From Candidatus Woesebacteria bacterium RIFCSPHIGHO2_01_FULL_44_10 (lineage in GTDB: Bacteria > Patescibacteriota > Microgenomatia > UBA8517): a stretch of DNA of 64,000 bases. Made by a program: the position numbers and the translations under genes. The stretch is from contig MGGO01000031.1 of assembly GCA_001792465.1 (NCBI GenBank), forward strand, positions 1,172 through 65,171. The letters run 5' to 3'. The notes beneath the pieces are model-generated. The model worked only from the letters and a program-made list of their open reading frames with translations, had not been told where the DNA came from and did no database searches. Of this stretch, positions 12,095 through 29,921 are shown piece by piece (positions within the stretch are counted from its first letter, which is position 1; each line of letters begins with the position of its first letter).

Positions 12095-13510
12095 GTGAGA
12101 TATACTTCAACTATGAGTGATTCAAACAAAATTAAATGTCCAAAATGTGGAGAAAGTTTTGAACCTTCTGAGGCATACAAACATGAGTTAGAAGAATCTT
12201 TACTCAAAGAGACTCAGGCAAAGCATCAGGAAGATATTAAACGGCTTGAAAAGGAGAAGCTAGATCTTGCCGAATCAACGCGTCTCGAAACAGAAAAGAA
12301 AGCTAAAAAAGAGTTAGAAACTGCGGTAGAAGCAGCTAAAGAGGAAGCTGAGGCAAAAAATAAGCAAAATTCGAAACTTAAAGAAGAACTGGAAGAACAA
12401 AGTCAACTTTTAGCAGACCTAAAAGAAGAAAAAAGTAAGCTTCGTCGTGATCATGAACAAGAGCTTGAGGATGTCAGAAGGCAAACCGCCGAGATATCTC
12501 GTAAAGAAGCCGAAGAAAAAATTCGCAAAGAGCTTAAGAGTCAAATAACAGCCTCAAATGAGGAATCTAAAGCTCGTGAAGATCAAAACAAAGAACTCCA
12601 AGATCAGGTAAAAGAGTTACTTAAACAGATGCGCGAACTTAAAGATGATAGGGATAAATTAGGAATTGAATATGAAAAGAAGTTGCTTGAAGGTCAAGAC
12701 AAGATAAAACAAGATGCAAAAAAAGAAGCCCAGGACGAACTTAACCTCAGAATAGCTGAAAAAGATAAAAAACTTCAAGATGCAGAGAAACAAATACTTG
12801 AGTTGCAAAGGAAAATCCAACAAGGCCCCCAGAACCTACAAGGCGAGGTTCAGGAATTAGAACTACAAGAAATTCTATCAGTAGAATTTCCTTTTGATGA
12901 AATAAAAGAAGTGCCTAAAGGTGTCAGCGGAGCTGATGTACTTCAGACAGTTAAATCTCAGACTGGAGAAGTTTGTGGAACTATTATCTGGGAATCCAAG
13001 CGTACGAAGACTTGGGGTTCGGATTGGATTCAAAAATTAAAAGATGACCAAAGAATGATTAAAGCTGATCTCGCTATTTTGGTGTCTACAGTTCTGCCAC
13101 AAAATGTTTCTTCAATTGGCATTATTGATGGAGTTACGATCTGTGAATTGAGAATGGCTGTGAGCATTGCCCAACTTCTTAGACAGCAACTTATGAAGGT
13201 GCATTCGGCACAGGTTGCCAACGATGGCAAAGCTACAAAAGCTGAAATTGTTTACAATTATCTGATTAGTAATGAGTTTAGGCAGAGGATAGAGGTTTGG
13301 GTTGAATATTTTAAGGATAGACAGGAAAAAATCAATAGAGAAAGAATCTACTTTAACAAGAAGTGGCAAGAAGAAGAGAAAAGTATACAAAAAGTTATTA
13401 CAAACACAGCAGGTATTTATGGTGACTTGCAAGGCTTAATAGGAAATGCTTTACCAAAAGTGAGCTATCTTGAGCTTCCTGATTCTACAGAAGAGACAGA
13501 AAATAATTGA
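12095..13510 (+). CDS. Zn-ribbon / coiled-coil / C-terminal PD-(D/E)xK nuclease-like protein (DUF2130/RmuC-like)
   Basis: 'CPKCGESF' sits at the N-terminus. A coiled coil of about 250 aa rich in E/K/Q follows. The C-terminal 'GADVLQ...GTIIWESKRTK' gives a D...ExK nuclease core. Confidence 0.55.
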   Translation: MRYTSTMSDSNKIKCPKCGESFEPSEAYKHELEESLLKETQAKHQEDIKRLEKEKLDLAESTRLETEKKAKKELETAVEAAKEEAEAKNKQNSKLKEELEEQSQLLADLKEEKSKLRRDHEQELEDVRRQTAEISRKEAEEKIRKELKSQITASNEESKAREDQNKELQDQVKELLKQMRELKDDRDKLGIEYEKKLLEGQDKIKQDAKKEAQDELNLRIAEKDKKLQDAEKQILELQRKIQQGPQNLQGEVQELELQEILSVEFPFDEIKEVPKGVSGADVLQTVKSQTGEVCGTIIWESKRTKTWGSDWIQKLKDDQRMIKADLAILVSTVLPQNVSSIGIIDGVTICELRMAVSIAQLLRQQLMKVHSAQVANDGKATKAEIVYNYLISNEFRQRIEVWVEYFKDRQEKINRERIYFNKKWQEEEKSIQKVITNTAGIYGDLQGLIGNALPKVSYLELPDSTEETENN

Positions 13511-13606: not shown

Positions 13607-14590
13607 ATGTCCGATAAAAATATGCATGAAAGGATTAATCAAATTTCAAAAGAAACAGGAGTACCGACAAAAAAGGTTCTCGATTTGTTATTTGCACTGC
13701 GAGATGGCGAAGTTGTTGAAAATAATGAATTGGTCCGAAAGGTAGGTGTTTCTAAAAATGCCCTAAATAAGGTAAAAGAGAGGCTGGCCTCGGTATTAGA
13801 ACCTGTGTCAAAAGACACACAACTTGATGGCGACCATGTTCAAGAAATACGAGCAATCTTTGATGAAGGCTATAAATTTGAAGATGCTATGTGGACTATC
13901 CTAGAAGATGATAAATACAAAAAGGCATCTGAATTGTTAGAAACTATTTCCGATAAGAGACCTTCACCTGAAAGAAGGTTTGATCAATTTACTGCAACTA
14001 TAGAAACAACGGCTCGTCGTGCTTCTCTCCTTCAATTCTTTGGAGACATTAAAGGTAAAAGAATTTTGTTTCTAGGTGATGACGATTTTACCTCGATAGG
14101 AGTGGCTTCTTTGGGATTGGCTGCTCATATAGAAGTACTAGATGTAGATAAACGCATTCTTGAGAGCATCAAAGGTGTCGCTGAGACAGAAGGTTTTACT
14201 ATTTCAACCACAAGAAGTGATTTAACACAGAGGCTGCCGAATCAGCTTATGAGAAATTTCGACATTGTATTTACAGATCCTCCGTACACGGAAAATGGCA
14301 TGAATCTATTTCTCTCAAGAGCTATTCAGGCATTGGATCCGGATAATCACGCAGCAAGGATATATACGTGCTATGGGAATAGTGACAGGGCTAGGGAGAG
14401 ATACCTGCCTGTACAAAGGTTATTTACAGAATCCGGATTAATGATGAGGTGGGTTTTTGACGGATTTAATCGCTACAGAGGGGCAGAATCGATTGGCAGC
14501 TCAAGTGCATTGTTAATAGCTGATGTAACACCAAAGACAAAACCTTTAGTTAAAGGAGGCTATGATAAACCCATCTATACCAACAATTGA
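13607..14590 (+). CDS. DUF43/BpsA-family aminopropyltransferase-like protein (class I SAM-fold; predicted dcSAM-dependent)
   Basis: Motif I is 'ILFLGDDDFTSIG' and the motif 'FTDPPY' is present. The N-terminus is winged-helix-like. The gene directly precedes and overlaps an AdoMetDC gene. Confidence 0.5.
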   Translation: MSDKNMHERINQISKETGVPTKKVLDLLFALRDGEVVENNELVRKVGVSKNALNKVKERLASVLEPVSKDTQLDGDHVQEIRAIFDEGYKFEDAMWTILEDDKYKKASELLETISDKRPSPERRFDQFTATIETTARRASLLQFFGDIKGKRILFLGDDDFTSIGVASLGLAAHIEVLDVDKRILESIKGVAETEGFTISTTRSDLTQRLPNQLMRNFDIVFTDPPYTENGMNLFLSRAIQALDPDNHAARIYTCYGNSDRARERYLPVQRLFTESGLMMRWVFDGFNRYRGAESIGSSSALLIADVTPKTKPLVKGGYDKPIYTNN

Positions 14591-14909
14591 ACACCATACG
14601 GCTCTTATTAAACTTGAAAAATTTCCCAACAATCAAAACAGCCTAGAACAGTTTGCTGATAAGCTAATAGAAAGTCTTAATTTGACTGTGGTTAAAAGCG
14701 TTTTTCATTCTTTCAAACCTCAAGGGAAAACTCTTGTATATATTCTTTCAGAGTCACACCTTGCAATTCACACATGGCCAGAATACAAGCTTCTTCATAT
14801 TGATTTGGTAAGTTGTGTTAAGGTCTTAAATTTTGAAAATTCATTGAAACTAATATTAAATAATTATGGGATTAGTAGTTTAAAGGTAAATCCGGCACTA
14901 GAAAGTTGA
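14562..14909 (+). CDS. speH: S-adenosylmethionine decarboxylase proenzyme (pyruvoyl-dependent, SpeH-type)
   Basis: 'VYILSESHLAIHTWPE' contains the ES self-cleavage site and the class 1 AdoMetDC signature. The size is about 115 aa. Confidence 0.75.
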   Translation: MINPSIPTIEHHTALIKLEKFPNNQNSLEQFADKLIESLNLTVVKSVFHSFKPQGKTLVYILSESHLAIHTWPEYKLLHIDLVSCVKVLNFENSLKLILNNYGISSLKVNPALES

Positions 14910-14997
14910 TGCCAGACAGTTTTGTGATACAATTATCATTAACAAAACTTAAATAAGAAAGTTTTGATGGTTAAACAAGCCATTTTAAATACGAGCT

Positions 14998-15567
14998 ATG
15001 GCAACTCGAAACCACACTAAACTAATAGTGGATCTTCTGGAGCTATATGGAGAGGATCCAAACAGAGAGGGACTCAAAGAAACTCCCGAAAGAGTTCTTC
15101 GAATGTACAAGGAGCTTCTGGGTGGTTATCAACAAGACCCATCTTCGGTAATTAAGACTTTCGAAGGAAATGGACATAATGACTTGGTGACTGTTAGCGA
15201 CATCGATTTTTATAGTCTTTGCGAACATCACATGATACCCTTTTTTGGAAAAGTTCATATAGGTTATATTCCAAACGGCCGAATACTTGGACTTTCGAAA
15301 TTCGTTCGATTGACAGAAATTTACGCCAGGAGACTTCAGGTACAGGAGCGGCTAACCAGACAAATAATGGATGCAATCGAAACAAATTTGCACCCACAAG
15401 GAGCAATCGTTCATGTTGAGGCGGAGCATCTTTGTATGGTAATGCGTGGTGTCAAGAAGAAAGGGGCAATCACCAAAACTACAGCTCTTTGTGGAGATTT
15501 TGAAAAAGACCCTTTACTTGTGGATAGATTTTTTAGACATATAAATCGTAGTGATAATTCAAAATGA
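14998..15567 (+). CDS. folE: GTP cyclohydrolase I
   Basis: 189 aa. 'FYSLCEHHMIPFFGKVHIGYIP' and 'VEAEHLCMVMRGV' are FolE signatures. Confidence 0.85.
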   Translation: MATRNHTKLIVDLLELYGEDPNREGLKETPERVLRMYKELLGGYQQDPSSVIKTFEGNGHNDLVTVSDIDFYSLCEHHMIPFFGKVHIGYIPNGRILGLSKFVRLTEIYARRLQVQERLTRQIMDAIETNLHPQGAIVHVEAEHLCMVMRGVKKKGAITKTTALCGDFEKDPLLVDRFFRHINRSDNSK

Positions 15568-16019
15568 AGGTAACAAAACAAATTGAGTGGGATATGGGGC
15601 ACAGAGTAACTAACCATCACTCTAAATGTCAAAACATACATGGCCACCGCTATCGGGCCGAAATATGCATGGAGGGGAAATTAGTAGACATAGAAGGCAT
15701 ATCAGAAGAAGGGATGGTTATTGATTTTGGAGATATTAAAAAGATTGCCATGGAACATGTCCACGATGTTTTAGATCATGGATTTATGGTCTGGAGGAAA
15801 GATAAGGAGGTTATGAAATTTTTTGAGGATAACCCAAAGCAAAAGCACATAATTGTTGATTTTGTGCCAACTTCCGAAAACATTGCAGCCTGGATTTTTA
15901 AAGAGTTAGATGGACGATTTATCGATAAATTTAAAACAGATTTGAGGCTTTGCTGGGTCAAACTTTGGGAAACACCAACGAGTGTTGCGATCTGCACCAG
16001 AGAGGATTTAGAAAAATAA
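15564..16019 (+). CDS. queD: 6-carboxy-5,6,7,8-tetrahydropterin synthase (PTPS family)
   Basis: 151 aa with a 'CQNIHGHRY' Zn-binding motif. It has a 4-nt overlap with folE. Confidence 0.8.
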   Translation: MKVTKQIEWDMGHRVTNHHSKCQNIHGHRYRAEICMEGKLVDIEGISEEGMVIDFGDIKKIAMEHVHDVLDHGFMVWRKDKEVMKFFEDNPKQKHIIVDFVPTSENIAAWIFKELDGRFIDKFKTDLRLCWVKLWETPTSVAICTREDLEK

Positions 16020-16020
16020 A

Positions 16021-16809
16021 ATGAGTGGCGAGAGACAGATTTACCAACCCACACCGGAGGATCGGGAAAGAATCAGGCCAAAACCTGACCTTCTTAAAGT
16101 AAGCGGAGATGGAGTTTTTGCTACTTTGCAAGGTGAGGGAGTTACAGCAGGAGAGCCTTCAGTATTTTTGCGGTTGCACTATTGCAACTTGACTTGTGGT
16201 AAACCTGAAGGGTGGAAGTGCGACACTTGGTATACATGGGATAAGGAAAGGGAGGAGTATTGGACGGAGTCATCTGATGTGAGTTTTAGAGAAATAGCAG
16301 CGACTATGGAAGCTGCTTGGGAAAGCGCTTTTGATGCTAATGGGACAAAAAGGGCGGTTATTACCGGAGGTGAGCCTCTTCTGCAACAAAGTAAAATTAT
16401 TAAGCTAATAGAAGAATTACCAGATTGGGACATAGAAATTGAGACTAATGGCACGATCGTTCCCGCCCCTGAGCTCGGTGATTGTCAATTTAATTGCTCG
16501 CCAAAACTGGAGAACAGCGGAAACAGTAAAGCGCGTAGATATAACCCATCGGCGCTAAAAGCAATAAATGCACTACCCAACTCATGGTTTAAATTCGTAG
16601 TTTCAGACACAAGCGATCTTGATGAAATAGATGAACTCGTGCGAGATTGCGAGCTCAATGAAGATAAATTACTTATAATGCCGGAGGGTCAAACAGCAGA
16701 TGTTGTCGAAGGACATGCACAACTTGTGAGAGATGCTGTTAATGAACGAGGGTGGAAAATTACTATGAGAAATCAACTAATTTGGTATGGTGACAAAAGA
16801 AGAACTTAA
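16021..16809 (+). CDS. queE: 7-carboxy-7-deazaguanine synthase (radical SAM)
   Basis: Cys cluster 'CNLTCGKPEGWKC' and 'ITGGEPLL'. It sits in que gene context. Confidence 0.7.
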   Translation: MSGERQIYQPTPEDRERIRPKPDLLKVSGDGVFATLQGEGVTAGEPSVFLRLHYCNLTCGKPEGWKCDTWYTWDKEREEYWTESSDVSFREIAATMEAAWESAFDANGTKRAVITGGEPLLQQSKIIKLIEELPDWDIEIETNGTIVPAPELGDCQFNCSPKLENSGNSKARRYNPSALKAINALPNSWFKFVVSDTSDLDEIDELVRDCELNEDKLLIMPEGQTADVVEGHAQLVRDAVNERGWKITMRNQLIWYGDKRRT

Positions 16810-17949
16810 ATGATAATTGGATCAATAGACAATAAAGAAGTAGATAGTTCAAATTTAATACTTGATACAGTTGATAATTTTCAGCTTGATGAAGTTGTTA
16901 GCAATGCATTGTTGCTTACACTGGCCGGATACTTAGAAAAAGATGACATCACAGTAAACGGTAAACAATACTTTGATAAAAAGAGACTTGAACAATTCTT
17001 TAGTTACGTTCTTAACGATAAAAGGGCAGCGCCACGAAAGTATAACCTTCAATTAAGTTTTTCGAACAAAAACCACGAAGTAAATTCTGCAAAGAAAAAC
17101 AATTACAAATACATTATTTCATATAGTGGTGGTATAGACAGCACTGCAGGGCTTTTGTACGCACTAGACAAGGGATACCCCATACAACCAGTTTGGGTTG
17201 GTTTTGGGCAAAAAAATGAAAAAGATGAGTTAGAGGTAATAAATAAAATCTGCAAGAAACTTAAAACCAGACCTATTGTTATCAATATTAATCTAAAGAG
17301 ATATGTTGATGAAGGTTGGAACAGGTGGAAAATGGGGATTATTCCTGGAAGAAACTATATTTTTGCGTCTATTGCTGCTTCTATGGTAAACCTATCAAGT
17401 AGCGATAAAAACACAATATATATTTGCGCGCATAAAGAAGAAATCAATCCTGTTAATACGGATAAAAGTGAAAGGTTTTACAACACATGTACTAAGATCT
17501 TTACAAAAAGCTACAACAAAGATATCGAGCTTACTACTCCATTTTTTAATGCCACTAAACCGGAAATTATCTATTACTGGATCAAGCACTGGAAACAGAA
17601 ATATAACATTTCACCACAAGAAACTGTTAGTTGCTATCACGGTACCAACTGTGGAATTTGTAAAGCTTGTATAAATCGTGCAGTTGCTTTTGCGTGTTGT
17701 GGGCTACAAACAGAAAGTTATAAAAATGATCCCTTTAAGGATACCGAGCATGTGATTCAAGAAGGATATATTGATCGATTTAATATATTAAAATTAGAAC
17801 GAAAACTTGATTTTCTTTTTGCCCTTAACTTTAACAAAAATTCCCTGCCAACAAACTTGAGAAACTTCGTAGATACAAACTATAAAAGATACAGCAACAA
17901 AATAATCGACAGACAAAAAATGATTAGAGAGGGTTTAAACATAAAATGA
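16810..17949 (+). CDS. queC: 7-cyano-7-deazaguanine synthase-like PP-loop ATPase (QueC) with an N-terminal extension of about 100 aa
   Basis: PP-loop 'ISYSGGIDST'. The C-terminal Zn site is 'CYHGTNCGICKAC'. The N-terminal extension was not recognised. Confidence 0.7.
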   Translation: MIIGSIDNKEVDSSNLILDTVDNFQLDEVVSNALLLTLAGYLEKDDITVNGKQYFDKKRLEQFFSYVLNDKRAAPRKYNLQLSFSNKNHEVNSAKKNNYKYIISYSGGIDSTAGLLYALDKGYPIQPVWVGFGQKNEKDELEVINKICKKLKTRPIVININLKRYVDEGWNRWKMGIIPGRNYIFASIAASMVNLSSSDKNTIYICAHKEEINPVNTDKSERFYNTCTKIFTKSYNKDIELTTPFFNATKPEIIYYWIKHWKQKYNISPQETVSCYHGTNCGICKACINRAVAFACCGLQTESYKNDPFKDTEHVIQEGYIDRFNILKLERKLDFLFALNFNKNSLPTNLRNFVDTNYKRYSNKIIDRQKMIREGLNIK

Positions 17950-18617
17950 AGCTATCAGTTGAATTACATAGCCTAGAGAGTAAGGATTCATTAACCTTAC
18001 TAAAAGCAATATATAAATCACTAGATGATTTCAAATCAGTGACCAAAGTTGATTTAGATAATATCCAAATTACGTGTACTAATAGCCATCGGCAGATGGA
18101 GCAAATACTTGGTTACAAGCGCCCAATGTGGGGAGTAAGCACTATCAAGAAAGGAAAGATATTTTTATATAATCCTAGGCTGTGGAACAAAAAACAAACA
18201 GGACACACTCCGGGCGATGTGGTAGCCAGCATTACTCATCAACTAGTACATCTTTACTTTGAGCAGGAAAAAATTAAATCACCTGTCTGGTTTGAGGAAG
18301 GGTATGCAACATATGTTAGCGATAGACAAAATGAAAAATTTAGGAAAAATGAGCTGAAAAAACTAGTTAAAAAGTATGGCGTATGTGACTATAACAGTCT
18401 AAAGGTCAGCTTTGCTAAACTTTCTGTTCCTGCGTTGTATTATCAAAGTTCATACGGCTTCATGTTTTATCTAGTTAAGCTACAAAAAGAAAATTCGCTT
18501 AACAAGTTAACTGATAAGTTAAAAAATGGAGAAAATTTCGAAAATAGTTTCATAAACATTTATGGCAGAAGTGCAAAAGATATATGGGAAGAGTTTAACA
18601 ATAAATTAATCAAATAA
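17946..18617 (+). CDS. Hypothetical protein with an HQxxH motif (possibly a metallopeptidase-like fold)
   Basis: 'ITHQLVHLYFEQE...EEGYATYV'. It is translationally coupled within the operon. Confidence 0.3.
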   Translation: MKLSVELHSLESKDSLTLLKAIYKSLDDFKSVTKVDLDNIQITCTNSHRQMEQILGYKRPMWGVSTIKKGKIFLYNPRLWNKKQTGHTPGDVVASITHQLVHLYFEQEKIKSPVWFEEGYATYVSDRQNEKFRKNELKKLVKKYGVCDYNSLKVSFAKLSVPALYYQSSYGFMFYLVKLQKENSLNKLTDKLKNGENFENSFINIYGRSAKDIWEEFNNKLIK

Positions 18618-18618
18618 T

Positions 18619-20298
18619 ATGAGCGGATATATTTTAGGAATCACCGGATGGTTTGAAAGAAGTCACGACGCATCTGCGTGTATTGTTAAAGACGGCAAGG
18701 TTTTGGTTATGGTTGAAGAGGAGAGATTTATCCGTAAGAAACATGCATACGACAAGACACCGGTTCGTTCGATTTCTTGGTGTTTAAATAAGTTGAGCCT
18801 AACTTTGGATGACATTGAGACTGTTGCGGTAGGTTGGGACTATAAGTATCTTTACCGTCTTGCTGGATTAAATGAGCCCAGATTGAATAATCTCGCAGAT
18901 GTGTTCTTTCCCAAAAAATATTTTTCGTATTCAAGGAAGCTAAAAATCGAAATTGTTCCCCATCATTTGGCACATGCGGCTTCATCGTATTTTCTCTCCG
19001 GATTAGACGAAGCAGCAATTTTAGTAGTAGATGGCCAAGGCGAAAACGAATCAACTACCATAGCTCGAGGTAGATCTGGAAAGATAGATATACTGCGAAC
19101 TTTTAGTATTGAGAATTCTTTAGGATATTTCTATGAAGCAGTGAGTGACTACATAGGACTAGGTCTTGACTCAGCTGGTAAGACCATGGGGCTTGCTTCA
19201 TATGGAGATATTATTTATGAATTTGACGAAATAAAGCTCTCTCCAAATGGGTATAAAGTTAATCTTAAGTTTGATAAAAAAGACAACTCACTTGATCAAC
19301 AGCAGCGTGTTCTTAGTGCATGGAAAAGAGTATTAATAGACACATTTGGTAAGCAAAACCAGGTGGACACAAAGTTTAATCCACTATATGGAGACTTCAC
19401 TAAAAGCGTGAAGATATCTAAGTTGCAAAAAGACACCGCCGCCTCAGCACAGGATGTTTTAGAAAGAACTTTGATGCATCTTTCTGAAATTGCTGTCAAC
19501 GAAACTGGCATAAAAGACTTATGTATGGCGGGTGGTGTGGCGTTAAACTGTTCGTCAAATACCAAAGTCGCCAGATCCGAGCACATAAACAGTCTATTTA
19601 TTCCACCCAACACTTCTGATGCCGGTGTTTCTCTTGGAGCTGCCCTGCTTATATCTGGAAAGGATAATTCGGGTGGGTCTCTGGAGTCTGCATATTTTGG
19701 ACCTTTATACACAAACTCTGAAATTAAATCTGTACTTGATAAAAACAATATCGCATATGAATACCATGAGGATATTGAAGATGTAGTTGCTAAACTACTA
19801 GCAAATGGAAAGATTGTTTCTTGGTTTCAGGACTCATTAGAGATTGGACCAAGGGCGCTTGGCAATCGAAGCATTGTAGCAAATCCAACGCTTGCGACAA
19901 TACACAAAAAGGTTAATGAGGCAAAAAACAGAGAGCAATGGAGGCCTCTAGCCCCCAGTATTCTAGAGGAGTCGATTGGTAAATATTTGGTAAATCCGAT
20001 GAAATCTCCTTTCATGCTTCATACATTTGATGTAAAAAAAGAAGTAAGAAGTAAAATTTCCGCGATTGTGCACGTTGATGGATCAACTAGACCTCAAACA
20101 GTGAGTAAAAAGGCAAACCCCCGATACCATAAAATGATCAGTAAATTTGGTAAATTAACAGGTTATGATCTTGTGCTTAATACATCTTTTAATGGTAGTC
20201 GTGAGCCAATAGTTTGCTCTCCATATGATGCATTAACCTCATTTATTAGTAATTCTACCGATTGCCTTGCTATTGGAAACTTTCTTGTAAGCAAATGA
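18619..20298 (+). CDS. NodU/CmcH-family carbamoyltransferase
   Basis: 559 aa. The N-terminal 'ILGITGWFERSHDASACIV' is a Kae1/YgjD-like carbamoyltransferase N-domain. A C-terminal YrdC-less CmcH-like domain is present. Confidence 0.7.
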   Translation: MSGYILGITGWFERSHDASACIVKDGKVLVMVEEERFIRKKHAYDKTPVRSISWCLNKLSLTLDDIETVAVGWDYKYLYRLAGLNEPRLNNLADVFFPKKYFSYSRKLKIEIVPHHLAHAASSYFLSGLDEAAILVVDGQGENESTTIARGRSGKIDILRTFSIENSLGYFYEAVSDYIGLGLDSAGKTMGLASYGDIIYEFDEIKLSPNGYKVNLKFDKKDNSLDQQQRVLSAWKRVLIDTFGKQNQVDTKFNPLYGDFTKSVKISKLQKDTAASAQDVLERTLMHLSEIAVNETGIKDLCMAGGVALNCSSNTKVARSEHINSLFIPPNTSDAGVSLGAALLISGKDNSGGSLESAYFGPLYTNSEIKSVLDKNNIAYEYHEDIEDVVAKLLANGKIVSWFQDSLEIGPRALGNRSIVANPTLATIHKKVNEAKNREQWRPLAPSILEESIGKYLVNPMKSPFMLHTFDVKKEVRSKISAIVHVDGSTRPQTVSKKANPRYHKMISKFGKLTGYDLVLNTSFNGSREPIVCSPYDALTSFISNSTDCLAIGNFLVSK

Positions 20299-21152
20299 AT
20301 ATCTCTGTAGTAATACCAGTATGTAATGATCTTAGGCTGAAAGCGTGCATAGATTCTATTGACGAAAAGGTCGAAGTTGTTATTTCTTTAAATAAACCAA
20401 CTAAAGAATTAAAAGACTTGATAAAGTCGATTCTGAAAGTTCAAAAAGAGAAAAATAAATATAAAAATATTAAATTTAATATTTGCGAGATCGGTTACCC
20501 CAGTATTGCAGGTGCCTATAACAATGGTATAAAACACGCGAGCTATGAAAATATTTTATTAATGGATTCTGATTGTATATTTGAAAAAGGATGTATCAGA
20601 AAGCTACATCAAAACATAAAAGGCCATCTTCTTTCGAAAGGAAAGGTTGTTTTCTCGAGTAATTCGCTTGTAACAAAAGTGGTGGCCAGAGCACGAGAGT
20701 TTCATACTTCCGATAAAGTCAGCGCATATTCTCCTCCCCTGCTTTTTAAAAAGAAAATAATCAACAAAATTGGTGGATATTATTTTCATCCTTCTTTGTG
20801 CTGGCTTGAAGATAGCGAATTTGATAAACGAGTTCAAAATGCCCAGTTAGAAATAGCATACGATAAATCTGCGAAGGTTATACACCCCTCTTTGAGTCCA
20901 GCACGGGATCTAAAGAGCGCCATTTGGTATGGAGTTGGAAAAAGAATAGGTGTAGAACTGGGAATTCACGATAAACCTACTGGCTTGATAGGCAGTATAA
21001 AGAAATATATTATTATGGCTCCCAAAAGCAAGGGATATTTGTCAGGCTTATATTTATTTACTTGGAAAATGGCTTTGTTTGTGGGTTATTATAGCCAAAA
21101 GTTTTTTAAGATAAGACCGGTGAGTATGATTATGTCTCAAAAAGAGAACTAA
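20295..21152 (+). CDS. Glycosyltransferase family 2
   Basis: 'MNISVVIPVCND' is a GT-A N-terminus and 'LMDSDC' is a DxD-like motif. The start was trimmed to the internal Met. Confidence 0.6.
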   Translation: MNISVVIPVCNDLRLKACIDSIDEKVEVVISLNKPTKELKDLIKSILKVQKEKNKYKNIKFNICEIGYPSIAGAYNNGIKHASYENILLMDSDCIFEKGCIRKLHQNIKGHLLSKGKVVFSSNSLVTKVVARAREFHTSDKVSAYSPPLLFKKKIINKIGGYYFHPSLCWLEDSEFDKRVQNAQLEIAYDKSAKVIHPSLSPARDLKSAIWYGVGKRIGVELGIHDKPTGLIGSIKKYIIMAPKSKGYLSGLYLFTWKMALFVGYYSQKFFKIRPVSMIMSQKEN

Positions 21153-21780
21153 ACCTTTTAATTGCAAATACTTCAGCAAAATCGCATTGCTCATGTAGCA
21201 ATCCTCGGTATTGATTTAAACCTTTTATTGCCAAGTCAATTCTGGAAGTTTCTAATTGCGATTTGTAATACGACATGGCTTTCATCTTAATTCCAATATA
21301 TTTAGTAATATCTTCAACTAGATTGTAAGCTTGAAGAGGCTTGTGCACTTCGTATAAAATCAACCCTTTTGTTTTTTTATTAGAATTTATATTGTATCTC
21401 CAGTAAGCTTGGGAAATTATTTGATAGGAAATTTTATGTTCATAATCAGCATCAAGGTCGTGGTTTATGTAAATAAAATCTGGTTTAATTTTTTTCCAAT
21501 ATTTTATAATTTTTGAAATATTCTGAACTGACACCTTGAATGTTTGATCTTTTAGTCGGAGAAATTGGCAATCAGTTATTTTCATATATGAACAAACTTT
21601 TTTCGCTTCTTCCTCTCTTCGTTTTTCTATCCTGTCGCCAGAAGATAAATATTGAATATAAACGTTGTTATTATTTTCTATCGCTTTAGCAATAGTTCCT
21701 CCACACCCTATAATTTCGTCATCTGGATGGGGTGCTATTACTAAAATTTTGTTTTTGGTACTTTTAGATGAATTTATCAT
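21130..21780 (-). CDS. PIG-L/LmbE-family N-acetylglucosaminyl deacetylase
   Basis: 'ILVIAPHPDDEIIGCGGTIA' signature. Confidence 0.7.
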   Translation of the reverse strand: MINSSKSTKNKILVIAPHPDDEIIGCGGTIAKAIENNNNVYIQYLSSGDRIEKRREEEAKKVCSYMKITDCQFLRLKDQTFKVSVQNISKIIKYWKKIKPDFIYINHDLDADYEHKISYQIISQAYWRYNINSNKKTKGLILYEVHKPLQAYNLVEDITKYIGIKMKAMSYYKSQLETSRIDLAIKGLNQYRGLLHEQCDFAEVFAIKRFSSLFET

Positions 21781-21825
21781 GAGCCTGTAGTATTATATCA
21801 AAGCTAATCGTAAATAACATTATAT

Positions 21826-22890
21826 ATGGATAAAGACAGGGATAAATTAACAAATCATGACCAACAAGCTCGTTCTGAGATAACTCTGATTATGAAATCT
21901 GGGTGGTCCGATATCGATATCGTAGATATTGAAGATCATACAGAACAAGGGTATTTCGGAGGAGTGTATTGTATAAAATCAACGGAGCGATCATACGCAT
22001 TAAAAAAACATCCAAGATCATTTAAAGGAAAATTTGATTTTCACAATCAAGTTTCTAATTTTATCAGCAACACTGGAGATGTTCGTTACTTCCCTTCCAC
22101 TATTCCAACTGAAAGTCGCGAACTGGCTGTTGATGAACCAGAGACTGATTCCTTTTGGGTACTAAATGAATGGGTAGAGGGGAGGGATATGAGATATCGT
22201 AGCAGACAAGAGAACGTAGATCACCATCTTCCGTTAATCTTTCGAAAAGTAGCACAAATGCATTCTCAGCTGGCTTCATTTCCCATAGGTGATGACAGCG
22301 TTGTGGATCGTAGCCTGTCAGAACACTGGGTACCAGAAATGTTAGAAAGATTTGATTTGGTCAGCAAAGGAGATTCGACCAGAAGAATAATTGATTTAAC
22401 CGGAATCGATTCTGCTAGTCTGACCAGATTTATGAGTATGAGTGACAGGTTTATTGAAGATATGTTGCAACATGACAAGCCTAAATATTGGGACCACAAT
22501 TTAACTAGAACTGTTATTCATGGTGATCTTAATCTCTCTCATGTTTTTGAAGCAAGTGGCGACTATGTATTGGTTGATATTGATAGGATGAAATACGGAA
22601 TGAGACTTGATGATCTTGGGAATCTAATCTCGGAGGCTTTTTTGTCTTGTGGGCAAAATACAGTGCTCGAGTCACTGCGTACGGCTGAGCAAGTGTTACC
22701 TTTAACAGATGTTGAAAAAGAAGACCTGACACAATACGTTAAATACGGTAAAATTAGGCAAAATTTTTGGTTGCTAAATGAAATTCTTACAAGAAATGAT
22801 CCTATGACATCTTTCCCTTTACAGCTTGAGCAAGAAGTTGCTAACACAGTTTTACTCGTTGAAAACTTAGAGATAAATGACAGAACGTAA
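21826..22890 (+). CDS. APH/choline-kinase-like phosphotransferase
   Basis: 'VIHGDLNLSHVF' is a Brenner HxDxxxxN-like motif and 'VLVDIDRM' is a DxD motif. Confidence 0.55.
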   Translation: MDKDRDKLTNHDQQARSEITLIMKSGWSDIDIVDIEDHTEQGYFGGVYCIKSTERSYALKKHPRSFKGKFDFHNQVSNFISNTGDVRYFPSTIPTESRELAVDEPETDSFWVLNEWVEGRDMRYRSRQENVDHHLPLIFRKVAQMHSQLASFPIGDDSVVDRSLSEHWVPEMLERFDLVSKGDSTRRIIDLTGIDSASLTRFMSMSDRFIEDMLQHDKPKYWDHNLTRTVIHGDLNLSHVFEASGDYVLVDIDRMKYGMRLDDLGNLISEAFLSCGQNTVLESLRTAEQVLPLTDVEKEDLTQYVKYGKIRQNFWLLNEILTRNDPMTSFPLQLEQEVANTVLLVENLEINDRT

Positions 22891-23599
22891 TAATAAATAT
22901 TTAAAACATTTTGAAGGAGACAGAGCACTAAAGAGATATCAAAATGAAATCCAGTGTGCCCAGATGTTTCCATTAATTACACCTCGTGTGATTTCAAGAG
23001 ATGATAAAAATCTTCGACTTGAATTCGAGTTGTTGCGGGGGGATAATACAGCGTTTACCAAATCGGGCTTGGTAGCCATTGGTAGAACTTTGGCTCAAAC
23101 TCACAAACAGGCAGGAATTGAATCAGGAGAATGGGTGGAGTCGGGACTACTTAGTAGGTACCAGGCAACTAATATTTCATCTCTCAGAGAGAGATATCAA
23201 AGCGCCAAAGGTGAGATTGAAGCGCCAAGATACAGCTTGACTCACGGAGATTACAGACGCAGAAATATATTTCTCACAGAGGGTGACGGGGTCAAGGTCA
23301 TCGACTGGGAATTTGCCGGTACAAATCTAATTTATTGGGATTTAGCAATCTTTATAGGAGATATGAGACATCAAAGATATCACAAGATACATGATTTAGA
23401 TGATTCACATTTTCTAGAAGCATACACTGGAGAGATTCCCTTAACCGATGAAGAAGCAAACTTCTGCCGTGTTTTAGGTGGAGTGGACATCGTACTTGAC
23501 CACATGGAACCAAGACAGGGAGAAAAACCGCCCGAACCGTCAGATTTGTTTGTGAATTTTAACGAAGAAGAAATGAAGTATTTATTACACAGTAACTAA
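22877..23599 (+). CDS. APH-like phosphotransferase (second paralog)
   Basis: 'LTHGDYRRRNIFL' and 'VKVIDWEFAG'. Confidence 0.55.
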   Translation: MTERNNKYLKHFEGDRALKRYQNEIQCAQMFPLITPRVISRDDKNLRLEFELLRGDNTAFTKSGLVAIGRTLAQTHKQAGIESGEWVESGLLSRYQATNISSLRERYQSAKGEIEAPRYSLTHGDYRRRNIFLTEGDGVKVIDWEFAGTNLIYWDLAIFIGDMRHQRYHKIHDLDDSHFLEAYTGEIPLTDEEANFCRVLGGVDIVLDHMEPRQGEKPPEPSDLFVNFNEEEMKYLLHSN

Positions 23600-23601
23600 T
23601 C

Positions 23602-24567
23602 ATGTCAATCGAAAATCAAATACGCACTAACTTGGAAGAAAACGAGGTTTATTTGTCAGAGAATCTTGGCCAACATATTTTGATAGATGAAGAAGCCCTA
23701 GAGTTAATCGGCCGTCAAGTAATTTCTGGTGGGAATGTGCTAGAGATTGGATCAGGGCCAGGAAATCTTACCGCAAAATTAACCGAACGGGCCAATCGAG
23801 TTGTAGGCATTGAGATAGACAGACAATTTGCCCCTGTATTAGAAGATCTTCAGGCAAGTTCACCAAATCTTGAGGTGATATATGGTGATGCATTAAGAGT
23901 TAATTTTCAACAGATAGTAGAATCTGAGAGAGATGAAGAGTGGCAAGTGGTATCTAACTTACCTTTCCATATCTCTGAACCGTTCTTAAAAAAGGTCGCA
24001 GGTCTTCCTGTCGAAAATGTCGTCCTAGTTGTAGGAGATGCTCTTGCAAGATCTATGCAAATTACAGATCCGGATTCTAGTGAGTTTAGTAGAACTTCTT
24101 TTTTGAGTCAAACCTTTTTTGAAACAAGTGTCATTGCAGATATTGAAAAGTCGGCTTTTTATCCTCCCCCTAGAACAAACGCAACAGCTGTTGTTTTGAC
24201 TCCGAGAGAAAGAGACGAGTTTAAATCAAATCCAAGGCTGGCAATCCAACATCGTTTATTTCTGACTGAGCATAAAAGTCCTACTGTGGGTAAAGTGATA
24301 AAGGAAGCCAGAGATAACCAAGTTGGTGGTGCGGGTAAAGATTCACACAGACCAAGCAGAAGAAAGGCAAGGCAAGAATTAAAACAACTTATTTACGAAG
24401 CTAACAATGGTGGTTTAGGGCAAGGGAATCGTCAGGATGGGGGAATTGGACACAGAGATGATAGTTTGGGTCTAGATGAGAGAATTCTAAGCACTCCATT
24501 TTCAAGGCTCGATAATCAAGAAGTTAGAGAACTGGCAAAAGCACTTAGAGATAAGTTTGGGCAGTGA
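23602..24567 (+). CDS. ksgA: rRNA adenine N6,N6-dimethyltransferase (KsgA/RsmA/Erm family) with an R/G/K-rich C-terminal extension
   Basis: 'LGQHILIDE', 'VLEIGSGPGNLT' and 'SNLPFHIS' (NLPY-like). An additional tail of about 60 aa, 'GGAGKDSHRPSRRKARQ..', is present. Confidence 0.7.
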   Translation: MSIENQIRTNLEENEVYLSENLGQHILIDEEALELIGRQVISGGNVLEIGSGPGNLTAKLTERANRVVGIEIDRQFAPVLEDLQASSPNLEVIYGDALRVNFQQIVESERDEEWQVVSNLPFHISEPFLKKVAGLPVENVVLVVGDALARSMQITDPDSSEFSRTSFLSQTFFETSVIADIEKSAFYPPPRTNATAVVLTPRERDEFKSNPRLAIQHRLFLTEHKSPTVGKVIKEARDNQVGGAGKDSHRPSRRKARQELKQLIYEANNGGLGQGNRQDGGIGHRDDSLGLDERILSTPFSRLDNQEVRELAKALRDKFGQ

Positions 24568-24619: not shown

Positions 24620-25027
24620 TCAGATTAAATCAAAAGCTTTCTTCTCGTCTTCGTGTTTCATTACTTCCTTAACTTTTTCGATCGGCATCCAATCATAACC
24701 GATACTTTCTTCATTTAGTTGAATCGATATATCTATGCGTTCAACTTTTAATGCTAAGAAATGGGCTTCAGTTAACCCATGTTTGCCCTCAAACTCAATT
24801 TTATAATTTAAGTTTTTGGTTTCTTTGAATTCGCTTGTCCCGAATTCTTCACCAGCCTCTCTTTTAGCTGCTTCCTCAAGGTTCTCATCTTTTTCAACGT
24901 CACCAAAAGTAATAGTCCATTCGTCCTCGTATTCGTCAAAAGGTTTATTGTGACGAAGTAAGAACCTTTTGTTTCCTTCTGGATCTATAGTCCATACTAT
25001 TACGGCTACTTTTTGATGTTTGCTCAT
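24620..25027 (-). CDS. NUDIX hydrolase (copy A of a duplicated module)
   Basis: Nudix box 'GDVEKDENLEEAAKREAGEEFG'. It is 135 aa and about 88% identical to the ORF at 42689..43096. Confidence 0.65.
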   Translation of the reverse strand: MSKHQKVAVIVWTIDPEGNKRFLLRHNKPFDEYEDEWTITFGDVEKDENLEEAAKREAGEEFGTSEFKETKNLNYKIEFEGKHGLTEAHFLALKVERIDISIQLNEESIGYDWMPIEKVKEVMKHEDEKKAFDLI

Positions 25028-25533
25028 ACTTTCAAGATTCTATTATAAAACTCATACTTTGCTCTTTGATAGTCCTTGTAATTTTTTCCATCAAAAGACA
25101 ATTTCAAATCTTCATACTCTTTTAATAATTTGTTGTTAGATCTTAGAATTTCATAGACTTTGATTTGCCTATCTGGAGGTTCTGTCAAATAAACTTCTAT
25201 CTCGTAACCGTCCTTATTAAATTTCCATTCAACGAAGGACTTTTTGACATATCTCCCTTGTTTATTAACTTCTCCAAAAAGCTTTTCAAAAGTTGGCAAA
25301 TACTTATCAAAGTCTTCCATGTTGGCAAGGGCATAAATATCAATGTCTTTTTGCCCTGATATTTCTAGAGCCACAGACCCCATGAACAGCACTTTAAGAT
25401 TAGAAAATGATTTTTTTATCTGTTTAACAATTGCTTCTCCTAATTTTTTGCCTTTTGAGTTAAATGGATGTATCGAGACTTTTCTATTAGGATCAATTTT
25501 TGATAAATAATCATTTTCTTCTTTGGTAAGCAT
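25024..25533 (-). CDS. GrpB-like nucleotidyltransferase-fold protein (copy A)
   Basis: 'LFMGSVALEISGQKDIDIYAL'. The annotated 234-aa ORF was trimmed to the internal Met (MLTKEEN) by comparison with its paralog at 43093..43590. Confidence 0.5.
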   Translation of the reverse strand: MLTKEENDYLSKIDPNRKVSIHPFNSKGKKLGEAIVKQIKKSFSNLKVLFMGSVALEISGQKDIDIYALANMEDFDKYLPTFEKLFGEVNKQGRYVKKSFVEWKFNKDGYEIEVYLTEPPDRQIKVYEILRSNNKLLKEYEDLKLSFDGKNYKDYQRAKYEFYNRILKV

Positions 25534-25569
25534 GTTTTGATTATATCGCACAACTGGTAAAATTGGATC

Positions 25570-25986
25570 ATGGCTAGAACTGGTACTCGCGCGGTTGCAA
25601 TAATTATCAAAGATAATAAAGTTGCCTTGATTCATCGTAAAAAAGAAGGAAGAGACTACTGGGTATTCCCTGGTGGTGGCGTAGAAAAAGGAGAAACCCC
25701 TGAAAAGGCAGTTATCAGAGAAGTGCAAGAGGAGTTGAGTTTGACAGGTAAGGTGGAAAGACTACTTTTTTCGGTAGAAAGTTACCCCAATGGCAATAAA
25801 GATCCATATTTTTTGTGCAGCGTTGGAAGCGAAGAAATTGAGTTGGGTGGACCAGAAAAGCAGCGACACTCAAAAGAGAATTGGTACGCCCCGCAGTGGG
25901 TTGAATTTGAAAAGGTTGGTAGCTTAAATTTATTACCCGAGACGGCTAAAGAACAATTTTTAGAAAAAGTTAGATCTGAGTTATAA
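25570..25986 (+). CDS. NUDIX hydrolase (MutT-like)
   Basis: 'GGGVEKGETPEKAVIREVQEELS' is a Nudix box. Confidence 0.65.
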   Translation: MARTGTRAVAIIIKDNKVALIHRKKEGRDYWVFPGGGVEKGETPEKAVIREVQEELSLTGKVERLLFSVESYPNGNKDPYFLCSVGSEEIELGGPEKQRHSKENWYAPQWVEFEKVGSLNLLPETAKEQFLEKVRSEL

Positions 25987-26044: not shown

Positions 26045-26300
26045 TCAGGTATAGCAGCTGAGACAAATCCCTTTTTATACTGTCTCATTTGTCTCGTTTG
26101 GCCTCGTTTGTGATACACTTGAAGGAAGCAGCTATGGGATCGAAAGGTTCCAGACCGACATGCTCAGCCAAACAGGGCACCCCAGCGACCGAGATGCCTC
26201 GAGAAGCCCAACCTTTCCTTCTAAACCGCTAGTTTTTCTTCCAAACATTCGGACGGTACGCTCGTAATTCGGATATTAGCCTTGAAATAAGTCTCTGGTT
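26045..26300. repeat. Intergenic repeat family, copy 1, containing a GAGACAAAT/ATTTGTCTC hairpin and a degenerate tRNA-Gln-3'-like segment
   Basis: Shares 'GAGACA..CCCTTTTTATA.TGTCTCA..TGTCTC', 'GTGATACACTTG' and 'GGTTCCAGACC..GCTCAGCC' with the copies at 40362-40615 and 44842-45000. Its distal part, 'GGGCACCCCAGCGACCGAGATGCCT', matches 3266-3292 just downstream of tRNA-Gln. Confidence 0.5.
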
Positions 26301-29920: not shown

Positions 29921-29921
29921 C

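Follow-up and report, generated by a model that had tools for sequence, protein, structure and literature searches.

A mobile 7-deazaguanine gene cluster with an extended QueC-family enzyme in genomes of the Candidate Phyla Radiation and DPANN archaea: a probable pathway to a decorated amino-sugar metabolite

Gene clusters for 7-deazapurine natural products are already known, including those for toyocamycin, tubercidin, huimycin and roseomycin, and the pathway by which FolE, QueD and QueE convert GTP to 7-carboxy-7-deazaguanine (CDG) is established. Huimycin involves N-glycosylation of a preQ0 derivative from UDP-GlcNAc, and in the case of roseomycin A, a QueC-fold enzyme, RoyL, adenylates CDG and forms an amide instead of preQ0 (bioRxiv 10.64898/2026.04.15.718813). 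The QueC-fold enzymes Cap9 and probably QatC are also CDG-amine ligases (PMC13329287, PMC13279940). Here we describe a gene cluster built around an extended QueC-like enzyme, in a 64-kb window (the whole stretch of DNA analysed) of a 257,879-bp Candidatus Woesebacteria contig on which the proteins of the cluster are annotated as hypothetical. Alongside the QueC-like gene stand folE, queD and queE, genes for a BpsA-like aminopropyltransferase, an S-adenosylmethionine decarboxylase (AdoMetDC), an HQxxH protein, a TobZ-like carbamoyltransferase, a family-2 glycosyltransferase (GT2) and a PIG-L deacetylase, and those for two APH-family kinases and a KsgA-like methyltransferase of the RrnaAD family (Table 1). 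A literature search returned no description of this cluster; the main text of a 2026 genome-mining survey of ~2 million genomes, whose detection rule requires that tgt, dpdA, queF and queA be missing elsewhere in the genome, makes no mention of carbamoyl, aminopropyl, polyamine, ArcS or Patescibacteria, and the accessible portion of a 2026 survey of the QueC family does not describe the extended-QueC clade.

We consider it reasonably probable that this is a mobile specialised-metabolite cluster, directing synthesis of a glycosylated, de-N-acetylated and carbamoylated 7-deazaguanine with an amine arm derived from decarboxylated S-adenosylmethionine (dcSAM). The product is most likely an antibiotic-like small molecule, in which a modified guanine base carries an amino sugar and an arm of polyamine type. 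In the pathway we propose, FolE, QueD and QueE would take GTP to CDG, and the extended QueC would adenylate the CDG carboxylate and pass it to an amine, yielding an N-substituted amide and bypassing the canonical route of ammonia addition and dehydration to the nitrile preQ0. AdoMetDC would furnish dcSAM, from which the BpsA-family enzyme would transfer an aminopropyl group, the two together supplying or extending the amine arm. For the sugar, analogies are offered by huimycin, by the aminoglycoside, mycothiol and bacillithiol pathways with their GlcNAc-then-deacetylase steps, and by TobZ/NodU: GT2 may attach an N-acetylhexosamine that PIG-L deacetylates to a free sugar amine, and the TobZ-like enzyme may O-carbamoylate a sugar hydroxyl. 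Finally, the APH kinases could phosphorylate the compound and the KsgA-like enzyme could methylate the ribosome of the producer, in both cases as protection. An earlier reading of this DNA (hereafter the original prediction) had likewise preferred a decorated 7-deazaguanine glycoside, possibly aminopropylated, to a tRNA or DNA modification, a preference which is supported by gene co-occurrence, by the lack of a nearby transglycosylase, by exporters in related clusters and by homology to TobZ.

The company kept by the QueC-like gene carries much of this argument. When the window proteins were scored on six-frame open reading frames (ORFs) within ±10 kb, in 17 non-redundant extended-QueC loci and in 95 canonical-QueC control loci (15 genomic, 80 viral), GT2 was found in 14/17 against 2/95 (p 3e-13), the TobZ-like carbamoyltransferase in 13/17 against 1/95 (p 9e-13), PIG-L in 11/17 against 3/95 (p 7e-9), RrnaAD in 9/17 against 0/95 (p 4e-9) and the BpsA-like gene in 7/17 against 0/95 (p 5e-7), where the p-values are overstated by phylogenetic non-independence among loci, and the counts are lower bounds given that many loci end at contig edges. 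FolE, QueD and QueE are not enriched over controls, because canonical QueC is equally linked to those genes. The tightest pair is the QueC-like gene with GT2, which also occurs together in 10/12 loci of a distant QueC-like subfamily that is devoid of PIG-L. This linkage is far beyond chance. Further, the same gene set is found in shuffled order in several classes of the Candidate Phyla Radiation (CPR), in a DPANN archaeon, in Actinomycetota and in Firmicutes, such that the synteny comparison called for by the original prediction bears it out: que genes recur with the carbamoyltransferase, GT2, PIG-L and DUF43/BpsA genes in diverged genomes. Its expectation that such a cluster would be out of place in CPR was, in contrast, mistaken, as CPR and DPANN genomes are the main home of the extended-QueC version. 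A fortuitous adjacency of housekeeping que, polyamine and ksgA genes with unrelated sugar genes might be entertained in a small genome, given that CPR genomes are compact with common gene overlaps, and that KsgA, AdoMetDC and FolE are each widespread housekeeping proteins. This explanation is effectively refuted, and to us barely credible, in view of the reordered recurrence across those lineages, the strong enrichment over the 95 controls, the location in a low-GC island, and the existence of gene fusions that join AdoMetDC to an ArcS core, GT2 to NUDIX, the QueC-like protein to His_Phos_1 and a GT-A-like module to the QueC-like protein.

Within the window, nine plus-strand genes (13607-21152) overlap or lie at most 1 nt apart in the ORF list, save at one gap, in line with the original prediction for this coupled operon; every junction was confirmed (Table 1). 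All of its domain calls also hold in Pfam and NCBIfam, the weakest being QueE, which falls below NCBIfam cut-offs, and neither the QueC-like nor the FolE assignment, on which its refutation would have turned, failed at domain level. The genes which it placed downstream of GT2 (PIG-L, two APH kinases and a KsgA-like RrnaAD) are indeed there, although the LmbE-like deacetylase sits on the opposite strand, convergent to GT2, ahead of a second tight plus-strand group composed of both kinases and RrnaAD (21826-24567). A scan for promoter- and terminator-like sites found them no commoner than in shuffled sequence and is thus uninformative on operon limits, and an Rfam search of the window for riboswitches and other RNAs returned only tRNA-Gln. 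The cluster lies inside a low-GC stretch (0.33-0.40, ~4-45 kb) that is flanked by DNA of 0.42-0.47 GC, and the rightmost 19 kb of the window is core genome, with genes for GluRS, AspRS, RecJ and the CCA-adding enzyme.

Table 1. Genes of the cluster and of its immediate surroundings, with positions in the window.
Feature	Position	Strand	Family evidence	Junction with the following gene
BpsA-family (DUF43) aminopropyltransferase-like, N-terminal domain ~110 aa	13607..14590	+	Pfam BpsA_C E 3e-45	overlap 29 nt
Small pyruvoyl-type AdoMetDC (dcSAM supply)	14562..14909	+	Pfam AdoMet_dc E 3e-21	gap 88 nt
GTP cyclohydrolase I FolE	14998..15567	+	Pfam GTP_cyclohydroI 238 bits, E 5e-71	overlap 4 nt
QueD-type 6-carboxytetrahydropterin synthase	15564..16019	+	Pfam PTPS E 3e-31	gap 1 nt
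QueE-like radical SAM enzyme (7-carboxy-7-deazaguanine synthase)	16021..16809	+	NCBIfam QueE models	gap 0 nt
Extended QueC-family ATP-dependent enzyme, 379 aa	16810..17949	+	QueC domain E 7e-27, residues 102-295	overlap 4 nt
Gluzincin-like (Peptidase_MA_2) protein, HQxxH...WFEEG	17946..18617	+	Pfam E 5e-8	gap 1 nt
TobZ-like O-carbamoyltransferase	18619..20298	+	Carbam_trans_N 9e-41, _C 7e-64	ATGA overlap if GT2 starts at ATG 20295; 37-nt overlap if at TTG 20262
Soluble family-2 glycosyltransferase (GT2), ~270 aa	20295..21152	+	Pfam Glycos_transf_2 E 9e-13	convergent, overlap 23 nt
PIG-L/LmbE-family de-N-acetylase	21130..21780	-	Pfam PIG-L E 4e-23; AHPDDE motif	
APH/CotS-family kinase 1 (APH1)	21826..22890	+	Pfam APH E 2e-7; CotS subfamily 50 bits	overlap 14 nt
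APH-family kinase 2 (APH2), HGDxxxxN motif	22877..23599	+	Pfam APH E 5e-9	gap 2 nt
KsgA-like rRNA adenine N6-methyltransferase paralogue (RrnaAD)	23602..24567	+	Pfam RrnaAD E 2e-34	
NUDIX, possible accessory gene	24620-25027	-	Pfam	
GrpB, possible accessory gene	25024-25728	-	Pfam	
NUDIX, possible accessory gene	25570-25986	+	Pfam	
Large serine integrase	3503-4816	-		
TerL	4832-6319	-	phrog_38, 282 bits	
TerS	6297-6773			
ParB-N6/N4 DNA methyltransferase	6731-8080	-		

The QueC-like enzyme departs from canonical QueC in both architecture and motifs. The original prediction correctly noted an N-terminal extension of ~100 aa but overlooked one of ~85 aa at the C-terminal side of the QueC core, and at 379 aa, against a canonical length of ~220 aa, the protein reaches 85 bits with TIGR00364, for which the cut-off is 150. 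Family members of ~380 aa form 78 clusters at 90% identity, and an exhaustive profile search yielded 63 representatives (E<=1e-30) among 1.84 billion, of which ~40 are full length. Among species-representative genomes the full-length members are almost all from Patescibacteria (Amesbacteria, Woesebacteria, Saccharibacteria, Gracilibacteria, Falkowbacteria and Paceibacteria), with carriers amounting to ~14 of 185,579 species genomes; the distant subfamily, at ~30% identity, occurs in metagenome-assembled genomes (MAGs) of gut Bacilli, Mollicutes and Clostridia. Canonical QueC is distinguished by an experimentally defined signature, Y-x-Q-x-H-x-x-E and Y-P-D-C, and Y35 and Y131 are essential in the E. 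coli enzyme (PMC13329287). This signature is kept in phage and housekeeping QueCs. Across the whole extended family it is replaced by F-G-Q-K-N..E and N-T-D-K-S, so that Asp alone is kept. The family alignment retains the PP-loop SGGxDS (SGGIDS in the window), GQ...E, PxRN, the invariant Asp218 and four invariant zinc cysteines, the latter spaced C-x5-C-x2-C-x2-C as opposed to the canonical C-x8-C-x2-C-x2-C. In YPDC, Tyr makes a stacking contact with the deazaguanine and Asp recognises its Watson-Crick edge, and both are lost in QatC (PMC13279940). Retention of Asp in the QueC-like family therefore makes 7-deazaguanine binding plausible, whereas partial loss of the signature implies that simple preQ0 synthesis is probably not the function, and that the base may be a CDG amide. 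Accordingly, the gene set FolE, QueD, QueE and QueC named in the original prediction stands, but preQ0 is probably not its simple product.

Similar departures are found in related loci (designated by L numbers). The QueC of the archaeal locus L136 reads Y-G-Q-K-S / Y-P-D-S and those of L035 and L041 read Y-G-Q-S-S / F-G-D-N; indeed, wherever a cluster has no ArcS core, its QueC has lost the His of YxQxH together with Tyr, Cys or both from YPDC, with Asp kept. A hidden Markov model built from the C-terminal parts (<=240 residues) of proteins P0203-P0228 detected DUF5591 only in L046, L138 and L139, and in one phage, and these three loci are exactly the clusters with a fully canonical QueC (YGQRH, YPDC). 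Across clusters there is thus an either/or relationship, between a non-canonical QueC and a canonical QueC accompanied by the ArcS core. DUF5591 is the catalytic C1 core of ArcS, which attaches an amine, lysine, at the nitrile of preQ0 when the latter is present as nucleoside or nucleotide, but not as the free base (PMC10516641; PMC11298593). In the sister clusters, QueC would be expected to produce the nitrile and the ArcS core to add an amine, giving an amidine; in the CPR and DPANN clusters, the modified QueC would join the amine to the activated carboxylate to give an amide, as do RoyL, Cap9 and probably QatC. Judged from these motifs, the notion that the extended QueC is a CDG:amine ligase rather than a preQ0 synthase strikes us as evenly balanced.

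As the best full-length Foldseek match of the QueC-like protein is QatC, which is likewise extended at both termini, an anti-phage system of QatC/Cap9 type also warrants consideration, wherein CDG would be conjugated to the N-terminus of a partner protein such as the adjacent HQxxH protein. The conserved position of the HQxxH gene, always after the QueC-like gene in one clade, and defence-like flanks (a Mokosh/PDC-S37-like helicase-nuclease, a retron reverse transcriptase, a Type IIG fragment and a Cas4-like protein) would suit such a role. However, QatA, QatB, QatD, a CD-NTase and Cap10 are absent from the window, no conserved N-terminal Met-Gly acceptor motif exists in the cluster proteins, and QatC matches in PADLOC and NCBIfam are core-only or negligible; moreover, it is with sugar-tailoring enzymes that the QueC-like protein is conservedly associated, and the base-reading Asp, lost from QatC, is kept. 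We consequently regard this explanation as very unlikely. The HQxxH protein was rejected as an N-terminal-glycine acceptor, its N-termini being unconserved.

The genes upstream of the QueC-like gene supply a complete clustered route from GTP to CDG or preQ0, when the QueC-family domain is included. FolE exceeds the NCBIfam FolE cut-offs, and QueD comes close to that of TIGR03367 (85.3 bits, cut-off 89.25). For the QueE-like protein the five top models in NCBIfam are all QueE (E 8e-21 to 5e-11), none reaching cut-off, and its orthologues in other loci (200-345 bits) adjoin QueD and the QueC-like gene. The AdoMetDC scores slightly under the TIGR03330 cut-off (70.8 bits against 75.65), and its sequence includes the self-processing motif ESH...HTWPE. 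The overlap of its gene with that of the BpsA-like enzyme is as dcSAM-dependent aminopropyl transfer would predict. In the PDB, the BpsA-like protein matches the N4-bis(aminopropyl)spermidine synthase of T. kodakarensis (5xnc, E 1e-25), with LGDDDxTS and TDPP(E/Y)T stretches in common. The pairing of the branched-chain polyamine synthase BpsA with AdoMetDC is among the nearest described counterparts, sharing the BpsA_C domain and the GDDD and TDPP stretches; it differs in that the match to solved BpsA (94 bits) covers the catalytic domain only, and in that the cluster gene lies in a deazaguanine and sugar context, not one of polyamine metabolism. The acceptor is probably not spermidine. The cluster protein reads T-D-P-P-Y-T where T. 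kodakarensis BpsA reads T-D-P-P-E-T, and D-P-P-Y constitutes motif IV in methyltransferases whose targets are exocyclic nucleobase amines, which makes the exocyclic amine of the deazaguanine a possible aminopropyl acceptor. In the sister clusters, the fusion of AdoMetDC to the ArcS core (found in ~19 clusters) ties dcSAM to the C7 substituent, and together with the constant company of the BpsA family suggests a dcSAM-derived amine, for which an aminopropyl amine, a short polyamine and dcSAM itself are all candidates.

The carbamoyltransferase aligns with TobZ (3ver_A) at full length with 419 bits, keeping the metal and active-site motifs HDASA, HHLAHAAS, DGQGE, SD-GVSLGAA, GPRALG-RS and LNTSFN. 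The GT2 family, which spans ~100 clusters at 60-70% identity across CPR and is better conserved than the QueC-like protein, is predicted to adopt a generic GT-A fold (AF2 pLDDT 92) with no transmembrane segment. Leading matches to PIG-L are BshB1/BshB2 in NCBIfam, and BcZBP, BshB and diacetylchitobiose deacetylase in the PDB. Directly downstream of the QueC-like gene in L001, L006, L010 and L013 there is always an orthologue of the HQxxH protein, in which Gln stands for the catalytic Glu in 4/6 orthologues; in sister clusters an M16 peptidase-like gene takes the corresponding place. The PIG-L matches to BshB enzymes, and the presence of a glycosyltransferase, PIG-L and ATP-dependent ligase triad, recall mycothiol and bacillithiol biosynthesis, and one could envisage a retained cofactor or protectant, or an envelope glycoconjugate, for which the QueC-like enzyme would acylate the amine of glucosamine with CDG. 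The tight pairing of the QueC-like gene with GT2, fusions between GT-A-like and QueC-like proteins and the lack of an exporter in the window cluster are all compatible with this proposal. We nevertheless deem it improbable, because the family is rare, patchy and carried on mobile islands (63 in 1.84 billion; ~14 of 185,579 species genomes), unlike a core cofactor; because sister clusters have exporters and the distant subfamily lacks PIG-L; and because protection from a toxic product accounts better for the linkage of an rRNA methyltransferase and kinases.

The composition of related clusters in other lineages informs our preferred reading of a specialised deazaguanine metabolite. The DPANN cluster (L136, Aenigmarchaeota) has FolE2, QueD, QueE, a class-I methyltransferase, the carbamoyltransferase, PIG-L, GT2, a QueC of 228 aa and two RrnaAD genes. 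A Micrococcus-labelled MAG (L046) encodes, on the tailoring side, the carbamoyltransferase, an AdoMetDC-DUF5591 fusion that retains the AdoMetDC processing site and a PC-x3-KPY-x2-S motif, GT2, a methyltransferase, PIG-L, an M16 peptidase-like protein and a BpsA-like enzyme, in addition to an MFS transporter, QueC, QueD, QueE and FolE. The cultured Propioniciclava sp. MC1683 has an equal gene set (L138; GCA_014164675.1, contig JACJFX010000016, 4501-15525), with the AdoMetDC-ArcS-core fusion, the MFS exporter and an uncalled GT2 ORF at 9893-10729, and a Defluviitaleaceae MAG (L139) combines BpsA_C, the carbamoyltransferase, DUF5591, GT2, a methyltransferase, PIG-L and an ABC exporter with QueC, QueD, QueE and FolE. 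All three sister clusters therefore contain the BpsA-like gene, and differ from the window cluster in their exporters, canonical QueC and ArcS core, which is often fused to AdoMetDC. Dedicated exporters are of MFS type in L046, L138 and L018, and of ABC type in L139.

Other loci depart further. In L006 the module of GT2, PIG-L and the carbamoyltransferase gives way to an alternative amino-sugar route, made up of a FAD oxidase, an aminotransferase of DegT type and a different GT-A enzyme. On an actinomycete-like metagenome contig (L003), the QueC-like gene (46% identity) and GT2 (375 bits) neighbour further GT2s, GFO_IDH oxidoreductases, MbtH and an MFS transporter. In Bacilli-type clusters (L054), a YhhQ-family transporter, a kinase and a His_Phos_1 phosphatase accompany GT2 and the QueC-like gene; these clusters also hold a radical SAM/SPASM protein and DUF6270. 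Of the fusions, that of GT2 with NUDIX belongs to L137, and P0239, P0240 and P0241 (817-835 aa) carry a GT-A-like module of ~440 aa at the N-terminus of the QueC-like protein. The latter were rejected as fusions with the GT2 of the window, the module being a different GT-A-like gene of Bacilli-type clusters; its stand-alone homologue of ~370 aa is unannotated and present in all such clusters (L054, 8076-9212).

Genes for putative self-protection distinguish the CPR and DPANN versions of the cluster. RrnaAD scores 136 bits with the ksgA model TIGR00755, under the cut-off of 171; its C-terminal part is diverged, such that the Pfam match ends at profile position 200/263, and with 93 bits against B. 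subtilis KsgA and 48 bits against ErmC' it is closer to the former. It sits within the clusters of L010-L013, L016-L019 and L136, as GT2-RrnaAD in L016 and L017, FolE-RrnaAD-QueE in L018 and RrnaAD-carbamoyltransferase in L019, and is present as two tandem copies in L136. Sub-cut-off scoring, C-terminal divergence and embedding in nine loci set it apart from housekeeping KsgA/RsmA, and where the original prediction had listed it as a mere downstream neighbour, it is an integral member of the cluster. We also rejected the idea that RrnaAD substitutes for the class-I methyltransferase of the biosynthetic route, since the two occur together in L016, L017 and L136. APH1 has orthologues in L001, L006 and L010, and APH2, which weakly matches homoserine kinase, ThiK and APH(3'), in L001 and L013. 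RrnaAD and the APH kinases are found in CPR and DPANN versions, mostly without exporters, whereas exporters are found in free-living versions, with L018, which has an MFS transporter besides RrnaAD, as the exception. This is the pattern expected of alternative means of self-protection: in CPR and DPANN versions, rRNA methylation and phosphorylation probably replace export, which suggests that the ribosome is the target of the product.

The surroundings of the cluster are mobile in character. At the left edge of the window (3187-8761), tRNA-Gln is followed on the minus strand by an integrase, phage terminase genes and a ParB-methylase (Table 1), then by a 207-aa ORF without assignment, and GC falls from ~0.43 to 0.33-0.40 as far as ~45 kb; the segment resembles what is left of a prophage, or else the border of an island that inserted at the tRNA. 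In L001, on a 297-kb contig of the Patescibacteria JTS-AC151, the entire cluster of 12 kb has a portal/adaptor gene on one side and a major head gene on the other (flanking phage genes at 2099-3988 and 18127-19296), and is cargo within the prophage structural module of a CPR bacterium. No mobile backbone is shared between loci, except that L035 has the ParB-methylase and a helicase in common with the window. In content, the stretches 8831-13510 and 26375-31301 resemble a defence island. They encode a fusion of an SF1 helicase with an MTES_1575/DUF559 nuclease (PADLOC PDC-S37, MkoC/MkoA of Mokosh, Hhe), a DUF2130 protein bearing a long coiled coil, an IS3 transposase, the C-terminal piece of a Type IIG/ISP restriction enzyme, a reverse transcriptase of retron type (RT_VI, 240 bits), a Cas4-like PD-(D/E)XK nuclease and an HD protein.

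This setting invites a further explanation, that decorated 7-deazaguanine is placed in DNA, tRNA or rRNA by an unrecognised insertion or conjugation enzyme, for example in a prophage-borne anti-restriction or ribosome-modification system. Besides the phage genes next to the cluster in the window and its position between portal and head genes in L001, one might cite the RNA-directed methyltransferase family RrnaAD as an integral component, the catalytic core of the tRNA enzyme ArcS in sister clusters, and the DPPY-type motif of the BpsA-like protein, which resembles that of nucleic-acid methyltransferases acting on exocyclic amines. Yet no member of the TGT (PF01702), DpdA, QueA or QueF families was matched by Pfam among the other ORFs of >=110 aa in the 64 kb, confirming the original prediction on this point; nor does the window contain QueG/H, Tgt, QueA or QueF of the queuosine tRNA pathway, and the Pfam annotation of ±10 kb around related loci includes no TGT. 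In IMG/VR, a scan of 2.9 million viral contigs disclosed no full-length extended-QueC member, finding only canonical-core QueC at <=30% identity, on which basis we rejected a typical phage DNA-modification gene family. Given also the MFS and ABC exporters of sister clusters, the small-molecule character of TobZ-like, PIG-L and DegT-type sugar tailoring, and a flanking mobile backbone that differs between loci, hypermodification of nucleic acid appears unlikely to us.

Several neighbouring features deserve mention. The pair of NUDIX and GrpB genes beside the cluster (24620-25728) is duplicated 18 kb further on (42689-43590), with 83% nucleotide identity over a 300-nt repeat and proteins near-identical at their N-termini, and the two copies bracket mobile and defence-type genes. 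A NUDIX gene recurs beside the cluster in L004, L006, L007 and L135. GrpB has a nucleotidyltransferase-type fold, and it is conceivable that it modifies the cluster product. The 43-nt repeat GACAAATCCCTTTTTATACTGTCTCATTTGTCTCGTTTGGCCT is present in three intergenic copies of 70-86% identity within the island (26062-26104, 40399-40441 and 44881-44923); a miniature inverted-repeat transposable element, an att-type repeat or the end of an insertion sequence would each be a possible identity. Further genes of sugar or cofactor type, which form a second group (31298-39255) and might conceivably serve the deazaguanine cluster, for example by providing SAM or a cyclitol or sugar partner, comprise an archaeal-type SAM synthetase, a shikimate dehydrogenase-like gene, a xylose-isomerase-like TIM barrel fused to a GFO/IDH/MocA oxidoreductase, indicative of inositol-type chemistry and weakly similar to two oxidoreductases beside the QueC-like gene of L003, a 342-aa P-loop protein without family, two GT2s and a CofE/F420-ligase-like protein. 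Among the core genes to the right there are two paralogous Bro-N proteins and a second reverse transcriptase, of generic or group-II-intron or DRT-like type (45828-46658, 51430-52305 and 61399-62583).

Several observations weigh against a specialised metabolite made by way of an amide-forming QueC. The amide-ligase idea is founded on motif changes and on a contrast of three loci with ~20 that are phylogenetically non-independent. The QueC of the DPANN cluster is canonical in length, and L054 pairs its QueC-like gene with a YhhQ-family transporter, so that other roles for QueC-like enzymes are possible; the known substrates of YhhQ-family transporters are preQ0 and preQ1. The L054 transporter, together with clusters that lack BpsA, further indicates that other arrangements exist. 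The window cluster contains neither exporter nor regulator, and sequence, profile and Foldseek searches of the PDB for the acceptor and donor of GT2 gave only generic GT-A matches, including AvpGT with Ara-A. The KsgA-like gene may be a housekeeping rsmA or a biosynthetic N-methyltransferase, and APH-family kinases can be biosynthetic, as are anomeric sugar kinases. Lastly, because the cluster abuts phage packaging or capsid genes both in the window and in L001, a role in nucleic-acid modification is conceivable.

CPR bacteria and DPANN archaea are thought to be nearly devoid of secondary metabolism, and their host interactions are poorly understood. If the specialised-metabolite reading is true, a cationic deazapurine glycoside coupled with ribosome protection would constitute a chemical weapon or defence for these organisms, and its scaffold would be a new one among the few 7-deazapurine natural products on record. 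It would also represent the third repurposing of QueC, after RoyL and Cap9/QatC, and a new use of dcSAM and of the ArcS core outside tRNA modification. More speculatively, and at what we consider rather long reach, CPR and DPANN may exchange, partly via prophages and defence islands, the means to make a ribosome-directed deazaguanine amino-sugar antibiotic of a new class, for which the new QueC clade acts as a CDG:amine ligase with a dcSAM-derived aminopropyl group, rRNA re-methylation and phosphorylation take the place of export, and the product is deployed against hosts or competitors or as a chemical anti-phage agent. The sister cluster in cultured Propioniciclava sp. MC1683 renders the question directly testable.

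Set against described systems, the cluster shares with the huimycin and proposed dapiramicin biosynthetic gene clusters the grouping of GTP-to-7-deazaguanine genes with a glycosyltransferase and the lack of a transglycosylase (bioRxiv 10.64898/2026.04.15.718813; PMC7439116), but HuiG is of GT4 type (PF13439) and not GT2, and huimycin keeps its N-acetyl group, employs canonical preQ0 chemistry with O-methylation, is made by actinomycete rather than CPR or DPANN hosts, and involves no PIG-L, carbamoyltransferase, BpsA/AdoMetDC, kinases or rRNA methyltransferase. RoyL performs the very chemistry proposed for the extended QueC-like enzyme, though it uses amino acids or dipeptides as acceptors, has ATP-grasp and TauD partners instead of sugar-tailoring enzymes, and is without the terminal extensions; its reported amine-contacting residues are Tyr41, His45 and Glu48, at the Y-x-Q-x-H-x-x-E positions, where the QueC-like family reads F-G-Q-K-N, a comparison made by description. 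From QatC (QatABCD) and Cap9 (type IV CBASS) the window cluster is separated by the absence of their partner proteins and of an N-terminal glycine acceptor, and from QatC by the base-reading Asp, lost there and kept here (PMC13279940). The ArcS C1 core (DUF5591), present in sister clusters L046, L138 and L139 and absent from the window and from extended or non-canonical QueC loci, occurs stand-alone or fused to AdoMetDC, without the TGT-like and PUA domains of ArcS and in an exporter context, and where phage DNA-modification (Dpd) clusters have DpdA beside preQ0 genes, the window has none.

The resemblance to aminoglycoside tailoring extends to the TobZ homologue, the glycosyltransferase with PIG-L (in L006, the oxidase with DegT), the APH kinases and the rRNA methyltransferase, and there are parallels with the paromamine and neamine steps of aminoglycoside pathways. 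By comparison with a 2-deoxystreptamine aminoglycoside cluster, however, the genes for 2-deoxy-scyllo-inosose synthase and the cyclitol core are not in this one, in which the aglycone would be a deazapurine, and aminoglycoside producers usually have Kgm/Kam rRNA methyltransferases and GT4 enzymes where this cluster has a KsgA-like methyltransferase and GT2. What is new here is probably a sub-function of QueC, in an unusual range of hosts; none of the parallels named above brings together a deazaguanine core, removal of an N-acetyl group, carbamoylation, dcSAM/aminopropyl chemistry and an rRNA methyltransferase.

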